Below, one piece after another: positions 2,763 through 19,656 of a stretch of DNA of 64,000 nucleotides (position 1 is its first letter; each line of letters begins with the position of its first letter). The notes below the pieces were generated by a model that was given only the letters and a program-made list of their open reading frames with translations, was not told the origin of the DNA and did not search any database. The DNA is from an uncultured Pseudomonadales bacterium (GTDB taxonomy: Bacteria; Patescibacteriota; Microgenomatia; UBA1400; PJMF01). The translations under genes were made by a program, and so were the position numbers. Location: positions 29,452 through 93,451 of the forward strand of contig CAZOVA010000002.1 in the NCBI GenBank assembly GCA_964583625.1, in the 5' to 3' direction.

Positions 2763-3530
2763 TTATTTTCCTGGAAAAAAAAGCAGAAAAATTAAAATAA
2801 TAAAACCAGTGAGAAAAAGGTATTCGTTTATAACCTGGCGGAAGAGTTTTTCTCTTAGATAGGTTTGAATAATTCCCAAAATGAGATAGAAAACTGACAT
2901 CAGCAACAGAGCAATATTCCAATTATTCATCGGGAGAAAAGAAAAAACCAAAGCAAACTCTGCCATAATTAAAGCACTAAAAAAACTTAATTGCCACAAG
3001 GTGAGACTGATCTTTTCCTCTAAATTGACAGACCAGGAGATCGTCAAGGAGAGAGGGAAATGTAGAAGAAAAATAGCTAAAAAATTGAAATAAAAAGGTA
3101 AATTGAGGGAAAAAATTGTTTGAGAACCCAAGAGGGAAATAATAATAGCAAAAAATAAAGCTGTTGCTTGAGCGGCATTGAGTAATTGAATATTTCTTTC
3201 CTTCGCCACAGAGAAAATATTGCTAGTGAGAAAAATAGAATAGGCACCTAGAACAAATAAGCCCAGAATAAAGACTAAACTCCAAAAGTTATCTGGTAAA
3301 AGGAAATAAAAGGCAGCAATTGTAAGAGAATAAAGGGTGGGAAAAGGCAGAATTAGTAACCACTCTCTCGCTTGCAGATCCTCTTTGAGAACCAAAGCAG
3401 AGATAAAATAAGTCAGAGCCCCAAAGCCTAGAATAGCAAGATAGCGCCATTCTACTGGTACCAACTGGATTAGCCAGAGTAAAACCCCTAGTAATAAGGC
3501 AAAAAAAACAAATTTTTCTCGACGACGCAT
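2763..3530 (-). CDS. polytopic membrane protein (unknown function)
   Basis: Roughly 8 predicted hydrophobic helices and no recognisable catalytic motif. Borders the long non-coding region. Confidence 0.4.
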   Translation of the reverse strand: MRRREKFVFFALLLGVLLWLIQLVPVEWRYLAILGFGALTYFISALVLKEDLQAREWLLILPFPTLYSLTIAAFYFLLPDNFWSLVFILGLFVLGAYSIFLTSNIFSVAKERNIQLLNAAQATALFFAIIISLLGSQTIFSLNLPFYFNFLAIFLLHFPLSLTISWSVNLEEKISLTLWQLSFFSALIMAEFALVFSFLPMNNWNIALLLMSVFYLILGIIQTYLREKLFRQVINEYLFLTGFIILIFLLFFPGK

Positions 3531-4386
3531 AGACTTTAATTATAGCATAGATAAATAAAAAATATTTATTGAGAGAAAAAGAAAGTAATTGTTTATTTTT
3601 AAGCCATATATTCTGTAATTATGCGTTAATAAAGACAACTAGATAAGTTTTAAACGTAAAATTCGCCATAAAAAGCTTTTCAAATTATAAATTATCTACT
3701 TTAATCTGGTTTATTTTAATTATGCATTTATATATTATTTAATATAAGCACTTTTGCTTGATTATTTTTATCTCAAAGAGGAAAAAATGTATTCAAAGAA
3801 GAGAGAGCTTCAAGGGAAAATAGCTTTTTAAAACTAGAGTCACTGGCCCGAAACTAGAAAATATAAGGACTTTTTGGTTAAAACTTCCTCAGGCTAAAGC
3901 TATTTTTTATCAGAGAGTAGGGGAGAGTGCTAAAATGACTTTTTAAAAAAAATAATTGCTAAATCAAGCTATTTTTTTGTTATAGATAATACCTTAAATT
4001 TATACTTAAGTAAAGAAAATATAACTTTGTATTAAATATTATGGTAAAGAATTTATCGGGAGCAGAGAAGAGAGGATTGTTAACTGTCTATAAATTTTTA
4101 CTAATTTAATTACCGCAAGAGAATAAACTTATTTGAGATAATCGGATAGCTTAAAGCCTGACTTTTTTTAGGGGAAATTAAAGCAATTTAATGTTTTTAA
4201 AATTTTACTTGAAAAATAAACTGAAGATAAGTTTTTGAAAGCATCCAGTATTTTAAGATATAAATAAGAATTTAAAAGTTATTTTTTTCAATCTTTGAAT
4301 AAATTTTAGGTGATGGGGACCTAGAGAGTAGGGGAAGCTGAAATTTTTCTAGGTCAACCAGAGTAAATAGACCTATAATATTTAAT

Positions 4387-4505
4387 AATGATATAGTTTG
4401 ATATAGTTTAAGTTGGGGATAATGATATAGTTTGATATAGTTAATAATGTGGAAAACTTTTAGTTTAAGTCTGGCTACGGCTTAATTGATATAGTTTGAT
4501 AGAGT
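4387..4505. repeat. three copies of a ~22-nt element, each an internal tandem of GATATAGTT(T)
   Basis: aatgatatagtttgatatagtt at 4387-4408 and 4421-4442 (identical), attgatatagtttgatagagt at 4485-4505. Gives 6 copies of the 9-10-mer within 120 nt of ORF-free DNA. Confidence 0.7.
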
Positions 4506-5301
4506 AAATTTAAATAACTATAAATATTATAGGGTCTTATTCTCGACTAGAGAGTAAATTTTACCCAGTCTCTTAGCTTGGGGAAGGAGCGAGTAAAACC
4601 CGAAAGCCTTTTAAAGCTACCAAAGTTCACGTAGTTTAAACCCAGGACGCCTTAGCTTAAACAGTGTCGCTTCAGAGAGTATTATGGATTGCATTAAATA
4701 AACATTTTATGGATAGAGAGCAGCCCAAGAAAAGGTGGGCGCTTTATAGCTCTACTCTTTATGACGAGAGGCAAGGTTTTTCCAAAGAGCTTTTTTGTGG
4801 TTTTTCCAGATTAAAAAGCCTGGAGAAGAGAGAAATAACAATGTCGCACAATATAACTTTTACGACCTATAGTCTGGAAAAACTAGAAAATAAGGCTTTT
4901 TTTAACATCGATTTTTATTGTTTGCTAACTGACTTTAATCCTTTTAGTCAAGAGATGTTTTTGAAATGACAGCCCTCTTCTCTGCTTTGACCTACATTAG
5001 TGCATCCTCTAGCCCAAGTCTCTCCAGAGGTACCAGGCTAAAATAAACAGGCTTTTAACTATAAAATGGCCCTGGCTCCCCCATTAAAGAAGTTAATTGA
5101 GAGAGGAGTTCTTATATTCCTATAAATAAAACCTTTAATTTTCAATTAAGTATATATAAATAATTAAAAATATAAAAAAATGTAGCTAAAAGGCTAGACT
5201 AAACGATGAAGGTCATCTTTTTAAAACAAAGCCGATTTTGAGACATTAGAAGGCCTTTCCAGGGTAAATTAGAGGCTAGTGGGATAGAAAAGTGTGATAG
5301 A

Positions 5302-6249
5302 ATGGGTTTTATGGAAACTAATAAGATTGACAGTGTGATTGTTTTGTTTTTGGAACATTTGGAAGTGGAGCGCAATGTTAGTCGTTTGACCATTCGTAAT
5401 TATCGTCAGTATCTACAGAAACTAGCTGATTGGTTGCAGCGTCGTCAAGTCACTAATATTACTTCTCTAGATTTAGAATTATTGCGCAAATACCGCTTAT
5501 ATCTGAGTAGACTGACTAATGATAAAGGTGAAGTCTTGTCTAAGAAGACTCAAAGTTACTATTTAATTGCTATTAGAAGCCTACTAAAGTGGCTAATAAA
5601 GAATGATGTTCCAGTCTTATCTCCAGACAAAATTGATTTGCCTAAAGCCGAGTCTTTACCCATGAGTTATACTGATGTCGATCATATCTTGAAATTACTT
5701 GAATCTCCAGATATAACTACGACTACGGGCTTAAGAGATCGAGCCCTGATGGAGCTACTTTTTTCTACTGGTTTGCGTGTCAGCGAACTAGCCGCCCTCA
5801 ATCAAGAGCAAATCAATTTAGACGGGGGAGAGTTTGGCGTCATTGGAAAAGGACGCCGACCAAGAGTGGTTTTTTTATCAGACCGGGCCAAGTTTTGGCT
5901 CAGACAATGGTTAGCCAGCCGAAAGGACGAGTGGTCTCCCCTCTTTATTCGTTTTTCCGGAAAGAAGAACTCCAATTTGCAGGATGATGGTCAAGATATG
6001 CGCCTGAGCGTCCGCAGCATTGAGAGAGTAATTGATAAGTATGTGAGAAAAAGCAAGCTCCCAGTGAAGCTTTCACCTCATGGCTTAAGACATTCTTTTG
6101 CTACCGACCTACTGAGCAATGGGGCTAATTTGCGCGATGTCCAGGAGATGTTGGGTCATAAAAGCATCGTTACCACCCAGATTTATACCCATGTCACCAA
6201 GCCACAACTGCGTCAAGCTCACAATAAATTTCATTCTCTGGAAAAATAA
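5302..6249 (+). CDS. xerD: tyrosine site-specific recombinase, XerC/XerD-integrase family
   Basis: N-terminal SAM-like domain (FLEHLEVERNVSRLTIRNYRQYLQKLADWL), LLFSTGLRVSEL, GKGRRPRVVF, HGLRHSFATDLLSNGANLRDVQEMLGHKSIVTTQIYTHV with the catalytic RHR...Y. Start may be the ATG at 5311. Confidence 0.85.
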   Translation: MGFMETNKIDSVIVLFLEHLEVERNVSRLTIRNYRQYLQKLADWLQRRQVTNITSLDLELLRKYRLYLSRLTNDKGEVLSKKTQSYYLIAIRSLLKWLIKNDVPVLSPDKIDLPKAESLPMSYTDVDHILKLLESPDITTTTGLRDRALMELLFSTGLRVSELAALNQEQINLDGGEFGVIGKGRRPRVVFLSDRAKFWLRQWLASRKDEWSPLFIRFSGKKNSNLQDDGQDMRLSVRSIERVIDKYVRKSKLPVKLSPHGLRHSFATDLLSNGANLRDVQEMLGHKSIVTTQIYTHVTKPQLRQAHNKFHSLEK

Positions 6250-6502: not shown

Positions 6503-6827
6503 GCCAAAAAGATCAAGGACTTATTATAACATAATTTCTAGTTGAACGGGCTAGTTTTAGGTTTTTGCTCTGGTAGAAGATTAATGATTATCTTATTAGC
6601 CTATCCTTTGTCAACAAAAAGGAGCTAAATAGGACAAATTTTAATTAATATATTTTCTATAAGTCTTTAAACTAGCAAACAAAAGAATTAATTGCTAATT
6701 AAAATTATATAAATATTTGCCCTTTTTATCAATGTTTTACCTCATTTTAGCCTGGAGAAAACTTTAGAAAAAAATCCAAAATCTAAAACTCAAAAAATTG
6801 GGAGGAATTTAAGTTATAAAATCTTCT

Positions 6828-17304: not shown

Positions 17305-19656
17305 ATGTTAGAAGCAAGTCTAAAAACGGCCGAAAACGATCTTTTCCAAAGATTGACGAGTACTACTACTCTTCTCCTTTGGCTATTACTGGCTATCTTA
17401 CTATCGGTTTCCCTTTGGTATTTCTTTTACTTTTGGTGGAAGAATCGTAGTCGAGAAAAGCAAGCTTTAGATTTTGTTACTCTTTTAATTCGATTACCAA
17501 AAGAAAATGAAGTTAAGATTGAAGCGGCAGAACAAATGTTTAATGCTTTACATGCTTTGAAATTGGAGCAGTGGAAAAGTTTTTTTGAAAGAGAAAAAAG
17601 TTTTACCTTTGAGTTAGTGGCTAAGAAAGAAGACATTGCTTTTTACTTGAGTGTTCCCAAAGACTTAAGAGATTTGGTAGAAAAAAACATTCATGCCGCT
17701 TATCCTGAAGCTGATATTCAATTGACAGCTGAGCCAAACATTTGGACTAAGAACGGCAAAGTAGTTTTCACTCACTTGAAATTGAAAGACGACGATCGCT
17801 ATAGTATCAATACTTTCAAGAATTTGCCCAATGATGGTCTCAATGCTCTTACCTCTGCCCTATCAAAAATGGACAATGAAGATGGAGCTATAGTGCAATA
17901 TTTAATTCAACCAGAAGGAGATAGTTTTAGAAAAAACAGCTTAAAAAGAATTAAACAACAAAAAGAAAAAAATAATGATCAGGAAAAGTCTTTTGAGGCA
18001 GACGGTAAAGAATTGCAGTCAATGGAGGATAAAGTCAGTAAACCCCTCTTTAGAGTGGCAATTCGCATTTGCGTGAACGCTTCTAGTAAAGAGTTGGCCA
18101 ATTCTCATTTGACCAATATTGTTTCTAGTTTTGCTCAATTTAATAGTCTCTATGCCCAATTTGAAAAAAAGACAGTTCTATTAAAACGCTGGTTCATGAC
18201 CAATTTTATTTATCGTTATCCGCCATTTTTTGAACATCAAGGCTTAATTATTCTCAACTCTGAAGAGCTGGCGACTGTTTTTCATCTCCCCAATAAGAGT
18301 GTAGAAACTCACCACATTCGTTTCTTATATGCCAAAAATGCTCCTGCTCCCAGAGAAATTCCGCAAGAGGGTTTATTATTGGGCAAATCTGTTTATCGTG
18401 GTGATGTCAGAAATATTTATATGGATTTAAATGACCGCCGCCGCCATATGTATATTATTGGTAAAACTGGCACTGGTAAATCAGAATTCCTCAAAGAAAT
18501 GATTTTACAAGATATTGAAGCCGGTCACGGAGTTTGCGCCATCGATCCTCACGGAGAATTTGTCGAAGATATTTTACAACTTTTACCTAGTAATCGAGCT
18601 GAAGATGTGATCTATTTTAACCCCTCAGATTTAGATAGACCGATGGGAATGAATATGATGGAAGCTGATACGGAAGAGCAAAAACACTTTGTCGTTAGTA
18701 GCATTATTGGCTTGATGTACAAACTTTATGATCCTCATCGGACAGGAATTATTGGTCCCCGTTTTGAGCATGCGATCAGAAATGCTATGTTGACCATTAT
18801 GTCGCGCAAAGGCTCTACTTTTATTGAGCTGGTTCGAGCTCTCACTGATCAAAAATTTGTTGATGAACTTTTGCCTTTGGTGACTGATCCTATGGTGAGA
18901 CGGTACTGGACAGATCAAATAGCCCAAACTTCCGACTTTCATAAATCTGAAGTTTTAGATTATATCGTTTCCAAGTTTGGTCGTTTTGTTACCAATAAAA
19001 CTATGCGTAATATTATTGGTCAACCTCAGTCAGCTTTTAATTTTCGTCAGGCAATGGATGAAAAGAAAATTATTCTTTGTAATCTTTCTAAGGGAATTTT
19101 GGGGGAAGAAGATGCTAAATTTTTAGGCTTAATTTTAGTGCCCAAAGTTTTGACCGCGGCTATGAGTAGACAAAATATGCCGATGGAGCAAAGACAAGAC
19201 TTTTTCCTTTATGTTGATGAGTTTCAAAATTATGCCACTGAAGACTTTGCTACTATCTTGTCTGAGGCTCGCAAATATCGCCTGAATTTAATTGTAGCCA
19301 ATCAGTATATTAGTCAGATTGATGAGCAGGTAAGAGGAGCAGTTTTTGGTAATGTAGGCACGATGATTAGTTTCCGAGTGGGAGTGAATGATGCGCAATT
19401 TTTACAACATGAATACGCTCCGATTTTTAATGAAACTGATTTAGCCAATATTGAAAAATATCATGTTTATATTAAAACTATTGTGAAAAATGAACCAGTT
19501 CCCCCCTTCTCCATGTCTTTGGAAAAAGATATGGAAGAAGTAGAAGCAAAAATGAATCCAGAGTTGGCTCAAGCAGTTAAAGAGCTAAGTCGGTTGAAAT
19601 ATGGTAAGAGTAAAGCAGAAGTAGAAGCAGAGATCTCTCAAAGAGCTCAGTTATGA
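17305..19656 (+). CDS. membrane-anchored P-loop ATPase of the TraG/VirD4/HerA-VirB4 (DUF87-like) superfamily
   Basis: N-terminal TM (LLLWLLLAILLSVSLWYFFYFWW), Walker A YIIGKTGTGKSEF, AIDPHGEF, Walker B FFLYVDEFQNY, C-terminal ARKYRLNLIVANQYISQ...GNVGTMISFRVG block typical of coupling-protein/HerA ATPases. Confidence 0.55.
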   Translation: MLEASLKTAENDLFQRLTSTTTLLLWLLLAILLSVSLWYFFYFWWKNRSREKQALDFVTLLIRLPKENEVKIEAAEQMFNALHALKLEQWKSFFEREKSFTFELVAKKEDIAFYLSVPKDLRDLVEKNIHAAYPEADIQLTAEPNIWTKNGKVVFTHLKLKDDDRYSINTFKNLPNDGLNALTSALSKMDNEDGAIVQYLIQPEGDSFRKNSLKRIKQQKEKNNDQEKSFEADGKELQSMEDKVSKPLFRVAIRICVNASSKELANSHLTNIVSSFAQFNSLYAQFEKKTVLLKRWFMTNFIYRYPPFFEHQGLIILNSEELATVFHLPNKSVETHHIRFLYAKNAPAPREIPQEGLLLGKSVYRGDVRNIYMDLNDRRRHMYIIGKTGTGKSEFLKEMILQDIEAGHGVCAIDPHGEFVEDILQLLPSNRAEDVIYFNPSDLDRPMGMNMMEADTEEQKHFVVSSIIGLMYKLYDPHRTGIIGPRFEHAIRNAMLTIMSRKGSTFIELVRALTDQKFVDELLPLVTDPMVRRYWTDQIAQTSDFHKSEVLDYIVSKFGRFVTNKTMRNIIGQPQSAFNFRQAMDEKKIILCNLSKGILGEEDAKFLGLILVPKVLTAAMSRQNMPMEQRQDFFLYVDEFQNYATEDFATILSEARKYRLNLIVANQYISQIDEQVRGAVFGNVGTMISFRVGVNDAQFLQHEYAPIFNETDLANIEKYHVYIKTIVKNEPVPPFSMSLEKDMEEVEAKMNPELAQAVKELSRLKYGKSKAEVEAEISQRAQL

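Follow-up and report, generated by a model that had tools for sequence, protein, structure and literature searches.

The 64,000-nt stretch of contig CAZOVA010000002.1 analyzed here (assembly GCA_964583625.1; hereafter the window) contains at 3531-5301 a gap of 1.77 kb without any open reading frame (ORF) longer than 101 aa. The gap is bounded on one side by a DUF5656 gene and on the other by the gene of an Xer-family recombinase. In it lie an array of short direct repeats, which is the subject of this report, and downstream of the array a dif-like core sequence. Beyond the recombinase gene follow tRNA-Ala, gyrA, ppa, gyrB, cdsA and rnpA, with gyrB, gyrA and rnpA at most 9 kb away; the Pfam matches of the flanking genes were to YebC, DUF5656, an Xer-type recombinase, GyrA, Ppa and GyrB. 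The gene order LytR_C - TPR - YebC - DUF5656 - gap - xer - ... - gyrA is kept among relatives.

As relatives served 80 species-level genome loci, which were anchored by the Xer protein alone (59-76% identity) and covered to ±10 kb. They belong to Microgenomates-type bacteria of the candidate phyla radiation (CPR) (Candidatus Pacebacteria, Woesebacteria, Patescibacteria group; Minisyncoccota at NCBI; one from assembly PJMF01). Copy numbers and boxes were counted in the 65 of these loci that have at least 2 kb upstream. Seven near-identical contigs encoding the same proteins are 99-100% identical over the region, the sole informative difference being a 13-nt indel; this indel, AATAAAACCTTTA at 5126-5138, is polymorphic relative to the otherwise identical locus L002.

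The repeat array in the window

A reading of the sequence alone had described the array as two identical 22-mers and a degenerate third copy, each with an internal tandem duplication and spaced 34 and 64 nt apart, and in all these points the description proved right. The identical 22-mers, AATGATATAGTTTGATATAGTT, are at 4387-4408 and 4421-4442 and the degenerate copy, AATTGATATAGTTTGATAGAG, is at 4485-4505; in a repeat search the copies started 34 and 64 nt apart. Copies 1 and 2 were counted as units of 34 nt (4385-4418 and 4419-4452, 85% identical) because a DnaA-box-like 9-mer sits 5 nt past each 22-mer. A perfect 13-nt inverted repeat (CCTATAATATTTA at 4372-4384, TAAATATTATAGG at 4521-4533, 100% complementary) encloses the array and had gone unnoticed in that reading. 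From left to right its features are:

4370-4384, plus strand: left inverted-repeat arm GACCTATAATATTTA (repeat search)
4385-4418, plus strand: repeat unit 1, 34 nt, with the tandem 10-mers TGATATAGTT TGATATAGTT at 4389-4408
4414-4422, minus strand: DnaA-box-like 9-mer TTATCCCCA, one mismatch from TTATCCACA, 5 nt after the 10-mers of unit 1
4419-4452, plus strand: repeat unit 2, 34 nt, with the tandem 10-mers at 4423-4442
4448-4458, plus strand: TGTGGAAAACT, the window's version of a conserved TGTGGAWAACT block, which on the minus strand holds the DnaA-box-like TTTTCCACA, fitting TTWTNCACA
4487-4505, plus strand: degenerate third copy TGATATAGTTTGATAGAGT (repeat search, 15-mer scan)
4521-4536, plus strand: right inverted-repeat arm TAAATATTATAGGGTC, holding the conserved TTATAGG block (repeat search, relatives)

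The window thus has two boxes with one mismatch each, 34 nt apart and both inside the array; read on the plus strand, 4414-4422 is TGGGGATAA and 4448-4456 is TGTGGAAAA, which fits TTWTNCACA.

Of the 9-mer GATATAGTT the 64 kb contain five exact copies, all on the plus strand and all within 4390-4496; in dinucleotide shuffles it was found 0.39 times on average and three times at most, and none of 100 shuffles reached five. The 15-mer TGATATAGTTTGATA, searched at up to three mismatches, gave nine matches vs. 3.1 expected, and its three exact matches are inside the array. A generic low-complexity AT repeat, which that reading had named as a finding that would speak against it, would recur at similar density throughout the genome; the motif is absent from the rest of the 64 kb. 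The same reading had set the array apart from CRISPR, and rightly so: the units of 22-34 nt contain internal tandem 10-mers, and the would-be spacers, 12 and 42 nt long, are partly conserved. Its view of an ordered array of protein-binding type, lying in an ORF-free region next to a recombinase gene, also stood.

The element and its boxes among relatives

Of the 65 Xer-anchored loci, 61 have the unit TGATATAGTTTGATAYAG, composed of two tandem 10-mers, with position and strand unchanged; presence was scored as TGATATAGTTTGATA with up to two mismatches on the xer strand. The number of copies is one in 36 of the 61 loci, two in 20, three in 3 and four in 2, the window having three. The array in the window is the three-copy state of a deeply conserved 19-nt element, TGATATAGTT-TGATAYAGnn, and the alternative that the motif is absent from related strains fails, since nearly all of them carry it. 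With 36 of 61 loci being single-copy, the multimeric spacing that had been thought iteron-like is therefore no feature of the family; periods vary from 24 to 34 nt, relatives having 24-27 nt vs. the spacing of 34 and 64 nt in the window.

More than 120 further contigs, in which the 15-mer is followed by TGTGGAWAAC, came from a scan of metagenomes. They include two remoter clades, in which identity to the Xer protein of the window is only 32-40% or 47-50%, and TGATATAGTTTGATA is nearly invariant across two clades with Xer only 32-40% identical. Within ±10 kb, the 15-mer had 111 plus-strand matches at -750 to -250 from the core, background bins containing 0-3. It is not alone in being conserved. 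Over about 450 nt of the gap the conserved blocks are collinear and strand-specific, in the order GGGRAGAG (immediately ahead of the 10-mers), 10-mers, TGTGGAWAACT, TTATAGGAC, ACCAGGCTAAA or ACTCGAGTAAA, AAAACCCGAAT, the 28-nt core and AAAAAGCCGTTTTT. In close relatives, islands of 100% identity stand amid unalignable DNA, one island of 110 nt covering the 10-mers and the boxes. The arms that enclose the array are CCAATAA and TTATTGG in the relative L012, altered on both sides. Further sequence features at the locus are CCAGGC/GCCTGG hairpins and a TTAGCAG...CTGCTAA palindrome.

About 40% of the loci also have inverted variant copies, TGATATAYTTTGATA, which follow the palindrome TTGATAYATCAA 100-250 nt upstream of xer; relative to the core, variant copies on the minus strand are found in two intervals, +500 to +1000 and +2000 to +2250, again in about 40% of the loci, and in some loci they lie between xer and tRNA-Ala. 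In L016-L085 the inverted copies also follow an AGCAG...CTGCTAA hairpin. The window is without these copies.

Read on the opposite strand, the DnaA box TTATCCACA is exactly TGTGGATAA. In 55 of the 61 Xer-anchored loci a TGTGNAWAA was found within 110 nt downstream of the element, the median spacer being 13 nt. Downstream boxes are of the types TGTGGAWAA and CGTGAAAA, upstream boxes of the types TTTTCACG or TTATCCACA. When 166 non-identical loci were counted, the forward box TTTTCACG had 51 matches upstream vs. 0.05 per background bin, and forward TTWTNCACA had 15 upstream vs. a background of 0.29. Forward boxes are enriched upstream only and reverse boxes (CGTGAAAA, TGTGNAWAA) downstream only; the boxes therefore point toward the element from either side. 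The element itself has an AT content of 0.76 vs. 0.60 for the background, and its median distance to the strong box is 13 nt.

In two metagenome loci, L129 and L177, the arrangement is TTATCCACA-at-TTATCCACA, 13 nt, TGATATAGTTTGATA, 7 nt and TGTGGATAAC, that is, an element with three perfect boxes. Their surroundings contain small zinc-ribbon and GRF-finger ORFs and neither xer nor DUF5656, a context that may reflect a different lineage or a mobile element. The resemblance of CGTGAAAA to a parS half-site was also considered; a near-palindrome is present in a few loci only (L028, L094, L121), and parS was rejected.

The dif-like core and the polar motif

Outside the array, the features of the gap and the recombinase gene are the following, all on the plus strand:

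3912-3927: purine-rich polar motif AGAGAGTAGGGGAGAG, with AGGGGAG at 3919-3925, left of the dif-like core
4323-4336: the purine-rich motif again, here AGAGAGTAGGGGAA, shortly before the array
4595-4605: strand-specific block AAAACCCGAAA, with ACCCGAA in 63 of 63 aligned loci (63 plus vs. 0 minus)
4841-4868: dif-like core ATGTCGCACAA-TATAAC-TTTTACGACCT, with imperfectly symmetric arms of 11 bp and an AT-rich center of 6 bp
5302-6249: gene of the Xer-family tyrosine recombinase (315 aa), the presumed partner of the core

Of 66 loci, 64 have the core block TTATGTCGCACAATATWACTTTTRCGACRTAA, once per locus, in the general form ATGTCGCACAA-TATWAC-TTTTRCGACRT. Its arms are symmetric at 8 of 11 positions in the window and at up to 10 of 11 in relatives, and it lies 160-650 nt downstream of the element (about 450 nt in the window). 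By its sequence, 4841-4868 is dif-like, with the architecture of dif sites (28-31 bp, two arms of about 11 bp, a center of 6-11 bp). A second clade has the core ACTGAGTATAA-TATCTC-TTACACTCAGT, which is located 100-150 nt before the start of xer and overlaps a TATAAT; a third has GTCGTACAA-TRTATC-TTATGCGAC, which is nearer to canonical dif. The 11-6-11 architecture is common to all three clade-specific types. Since the core changes alongside the recombinase in the three clades, it co-varies with xer and is genetically linked to it. The only ORF in the gap, of 101 aa with a GTG start (4664-4969, plus strand), has no Pfam match and crosses the conserved core; it was considered as a decayed gene and, being without a family and overlapping the core, is probably no gene.

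Around the core, the heptamer AGGGGAG changes strand. In 62 genome loci the ratio of plus to minus copies is 129:1 on the left and 15:109 on the right; the metagenome loci gave 65:1 and 9:28 with core type 1, 32:0 and 0:18 with core type 2, and 5:0 and 0:9 with core type 3. A stratified k-mer test within ORFs of both orientations on both flanks (60 loci, ±10 kb) gave 78:1 in plus genes and 18:0 in minus genes on the left flank, 6:16 in plus genes and 2:50 in minus genes on the right. The switch takes place within 200 nt on either side of the core and not at the array, and the density of the heptamer climbs toward the core; altogether, the pattern was seen in about 140 related loci. Left of its core the window has a sole copy, on the plus strand at 3919; to the right there are ten, all on the minus strand (5936, 6378, 12999, 16039, 16702, 22500, 25362, 29576, 31838, 38407), six of which are inside plus-strand genes. 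This polarity also accounts for the purine-rich motifs that closely precede the array. AGGGGAG behaves around the core like the FtsK-orienting polar sequences (KOPS), SpoIIIE recognition sequences (SRS) or architecture imparting sequences (AIMS) around dif and would presumably be recognized by FtsK. No FtsK was found among the ten largest unannotated ORFs of the window.

The closest counterparts of the core are the single-recombinase systems XerS/difSL and XerH/difH, of which linkage between dif and the recombinase gene is described as a hallmark (PMC5357621). Like theirs, the core is a single-copy, xer-linked dyad whose 11-bp arms enclose a short AT-rich center, and a polar purine-rich motif converges on it, as KOPS, SRS and AIMS do. 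Unlike theirs, it is 450-1500 nt away from xer rather than adjacent, and there is no flip of the GC skew at third codon positions (GC3 skew). The likeness concerns the neighboring core and not the array, and the recombinase of the window, its sole Xer paralogue, is nearest to XerC and XerD, scoring best with their models and under the cut-offs of both.

A proposed origin-like module and its alternatives

We propose, tentatively and with the chances a little short of even, that the array is an origin-like site for DnaA assembly together with an unwinding element, coupled to dif. DnaA would bind to the strong box TGTGGAWAA, which follows the element after a median spacer of 13 nt, and also to the weaker boxes, CGTGAAAA on the downstream side and TTTTCACG or TTATCCACA on the upstream side; every one of these boxes faces the element. 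From the boxes DnaA oligomers would extend onto the 10-mers, which would then melt or be captured as single strands. The extra copies in this genome would enlarge the platform, copies 1 and 2 each having been duplicated with its own box. The module would thus be the origin of the chromosome or, at the least, a site whose unwinding depends on DnaA, and would be physically coupled to a dimer-resolution module (the core at 4841-4868 and xer) about 450 nt downstream. We favor this reading because it uses all the facts: the 10-mer pair, the boxes facing inward and the dif-like convergence of polarity.

The left end of the E. coli origin offers the nearest model. In E. coli oriC three AT-rich 13-mers are followed by 13 nt and then by TGTGGATAA. 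The module resembles it in that two or three AT-rich direct repeats of 10-13 nt stand in tandem and that TGTGGATAA follows on the same strand after about 13 nt, with more boxes nearby. It differs in that the repeat sequence is near-constant throughout the lineage, that a single 10-mer pair is the commonest state, that boxes face inward from both sides, and that GATC sites, a skew flip and linkage to gidA, mioC or dnaA are all missing.

A second model is the basal unwinding system (BUS), known from Bacillus subtilis as well as many other bacteria and built of DnaA boxes, a spacer and DnaA-trios (PMC8287927, PMC6669920). The module shares with it a strong box, often accompanied by a weaker one in tandem, at 10-13 nt from the presumed site of opening; a distance of 10-13 bp between DnaA box and unwinding element is reported as the mode in bacterial origins (PMC8287927). 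The tandem TTATCCACA boxes of L129 are exactly 13 nt from the element. DnaA-trios are defined as at least three consecutive 3'-NAN-5' (consensus GAT) not more than 16 bp from a DnaA box (PMC8287927), and the median of 13 nt is within this distance. Unlike in the BUS, the 10-mers do not obey the trio rule, and no separate AT-rich tract comes after the element.

Several findings weigh against an origin-like function. By inspection, TGATATAGTTTGATA is without three consecutive NAN in any frame on either strand, and DnaA-trios were rejected. No long AT tract flanks the element; a long AT-rich duplex unwinding element beside it was looked for and none is present. The boxes are few: oriC is usually recognized by at least three clustered boxes (TTWTNCACA with at most one mismatch), each within about 100 bp of the next, and by this measure the window and most loci appear to fall short, a typical locus having one strong box and one to three weak ones, the window two with one mismatch each, and L129 and L177 three perfect ones. 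Neither dnaA nor dnaN was found within ±10 kb in about 200 loci (motif regex, tblastn with B. subtilis DnaA). The inverted, slightly altered TGATATAYTTTGATA copies ahead of xer appear promoter-like. Finally, the GC3 skew does not change sign at the locus, being positive on the xer strand on both flanks, and the one published closed genome of the PJMF01 family, to which L081 probably belongs, was reported with a normal skew pattern (PMC7143001).

The skew deserves a closer look, the raw GC skew being confounded by gene strand. Pooled over the genome loci, the GC3 skew is 0.15 in plus genes and 0.26 in minus genes on the left flank, and 0.16 and 0.24, respectively, on the right; it is positive on the left in all 60 loci and on the right in 53 of 55, and the metagenome clades behave likewise. 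In the window it is positive on the plus strand for nearly all genes of both orientations, with no leading-strand switch across 1-64000. At a classical bidirectional origin or at a terminus the sign would flip, and both were rejected. Without a flip, the AGGGGAG copies on the right flank therefore oppose the fork direction deduced from the skew for at least 33 kb.

Closed genomes of the order UBA1400 have a monotonic cumulative skew, for which the authors proposed that origin and terminus are close together or that replication is of the unidirectional theta type (Kadnikov et al., PMC7143001). If skew reflects replication, its failure to flip speaks for origin and dif being only about 0.5 kb apart on a chromosome replicated one way, the DnaA boxes and the 10-mer element being the origin. 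This more specific model may be right, and we regard it as rather doubtful; it would jointly explain the DnaA-box module beside dif, the convergence of AGGGGAG and the unflipped GC3 skew.

Among the alternatives, the one that survives best gives the array an accessory or architectural role within the Xer/dif module instead of that of an origin: a complex of DnaA and a 10-mer-binding protein on one side of the core would control or direct recombination; in a variant, the complex could couple the activity of xer and dif to the cell cycle. The module is always on the same side of the core, at 160-650 nt, and accompanies xer in three clades despite their divergence, the core is clearly dif-like and at the polarity switch, and neither a skew flip nor a nearby dnaA is needed. 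The precedents would be cer and psi, which have accessory sequences of about 180 bp with ArgR/PepA or ArcA/PepA. As in these, a few hundred bp of DNA of protein-binding type lie on one side of an Xer core. Unlike the module, cer and psi are plasmid-borne, their spacing is fixed, and their factors ArgR, ArcA and PepA are not DnaA, which to our knowledge is not among the Xer accessory factors. A chromosomal dif with guidance of the KOPS type normally needs no accessory sequences. Moreover, the distance between element and core varies fourfold, a poor fit to a looped filter, and L129 and L177 have the element with three perfect boxes and neither xer nor a core in reach. We consider an accessory function somewhat unlikely.

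The 10-mers could also be tandem promoters directed toward core and xer or toward a non-coding transcript, with the DnaA boxes as operators. As an extended -10 element, TGATATAGT matches TGnTATAAT at 8 of 9 positions (7 of the 8 specified bases), and TTGATA is similar to a -35 element. An extended -10 is also what the promoters ahead of most genes and tRNAs of this genome show, uniformly TGTTATAAT with little sign of a -35 (e.g., 41160-41180, 6515-6535, 3540-3560). The motifs downstream of the array are strongly strand-specific, and a promoter reading would suit the inverted TGATATAYTTTGATA copies that follow TTGATAYATCAA upstream of xer and those between xer and tRNA-Ala. A promoter scan predicted sites within the array, but its 10 sites vs. 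7.9 in shuffles are not above expectation. All 15 positions are kept, including a non-consensus G at -8 and the trailing TTTGATA, with no drift toward TGTTATAAT in more than 160 loci; conservation of 15 positions across Xer proteins of 32-40% identity exceeds what a promoter needs. The boxes point at the element from both sides, the xer of clade 2 has its own TTGACA/TATAAT promoter at the core, and after the array neither a terminator nor a defined RNA was found. That the 10-mers are promoters is unlikely.

The chances are lower still for polar fork barriers, by which the 10-mers, bound by a terminator protein as at Ter, would form a fork trap around dif. There are plus-strand copies left of the core and, in about 40% of the loci, minus-strand copies right of it, and a dif-like marker of the terminus is at the site. 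Yet the right-hand copies differ in sequence, and the window, like most loci, lacks them; the DnaA boxes alongside are left unexplained, and the GC3 skew speaks for forks that traverse the locus rather than converge on it. We know of no similarity to Tus or RTP sites. We judge fork barriers to be quite improbable.

A long structured non-coding RNA on the plus strand, extending from the 10-mers to a hairpin-like core, is very improbable. Some 450 nt of collinear, strand-specific blocks could be so explained, as could the single change on both sides of the enclosing inverted repeat (L012), and by inspection every variant allows TATAGTT to pair with an RYTATA that precedes GG. Against this, RNAalifold found zero pairs in 63 sequences around the core, the fold of the plus-strand array has a shuffle-like z-score of -0.64, and the variants of the core arms produce C.A mismatches on either strand. 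The DNA between the conserved islands is unalignable, and the 10-mers vary in copy number and in orientation, the second copy being inverted in L028, L029 and L034. Rfam searches of the window region and of six related loci yielded only tRNAs and noise at the gathering threshold and at E values up to 10. For tRNA or transfer-messenger RNA, also rejected, ARAGORN and Rfam gave only four tRNAs, elsewhere in the window. We take the array to be a DNA site, neither RNA nor CRISPR; as to RNA, this conclusion follows from the copy number of 1-4, the inverted second copies, the lack of a fold and of an Rfam match, and the islands of identity.

The likeness to iterons that the sequence-only reading had seen is sound in so far as the setting is origin-like, with DnaA boxes; its extension to the iterons of a plasmid or phage bound by Rep is not supported. 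As in the iteron origins of theta plasmids (pSC101, R6K, P1, RK2), three direct 22-mers stand beside a DnaA box in the window, and in some relatives inverted partial copies ahead of the neighboring gene, near its promoter, recall sites of rep autoregulation. Unidirectional replication is known among theta plasmids with iteron origins. A Rep or other initiator gene was not found in the vicinity, the neighbors being YebC, DUF5656, the Xer-family recombinase, tRNA-Ala and gyrA. In contrast to those plasmids, the locus is chromosomal with conserved housekeeping synteny and the usual state is a single 10-mer pair (36 of 61 loci). The module had no matches in PLSDB plasmids or in IMG/VR viral contigs; four lone IMG/VR matches to the 19-mer, without other motifs of the module, are probably due to chance, and an origin from a mobile element was rejected. 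Iterons of an integrated plasmid or phage replicon have next to no probability. The array is possibly a multimeric operator.

We know of essentially no mapped origins or termini in CPR bacteria. For some Microgenomates genomes with a one-way skew, unidirectional replication had been proposed earlier without a candidate site. Here a compact conserved non-coding module is defined, composed of DnaA boxes and an almost unvarying 10-mer pair, together with a lineage-specific dif-like site with its Xer gene and a heptamer, AGGGGAG, that is a candidate for guiding FtsK; the genomes and contigs with module, dif-like site and heptamer number more than 160. Should origin and dif indeed be adjacent, this would be a layout unprecedented for a cellular chromosome and plasmid-like, and would provide a basis at the sequence level for the monotonic cumulative skew of related closed genomes (PMC7143001). 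If they are not, the module would still be a new DnaA-linked control region for the resolution of chromosome dimers.

A few observations on the neighborhood may be added. The DUF5656 gene of the window (2763-3530, minus strand) is on the opposite strand from the orthologue in most relatives, which follows yebC on the plus strand; apparently this one gene next to the module was inverted in a particular lineage, and L011 and L014 also have a minus-strand ORF at this position. Amid housekeeping genes, 17305-19656 (plus strand) encodes a protein of 783 aa with ATPase domains of the TrwB/HerA type, similar to type IV coupling proteins. In the metagenome loci L097 and L135, ORFs for LAGLIDADG homing endonucleases lie in the gap between module and xer (Pfam E = 9e-20 and 9e-07), and in L094, on a contig of 753 kb, the interval between core and xer holds four inserted genes for large secreted or surface proteins (242, 851, 215 and 240 aa).

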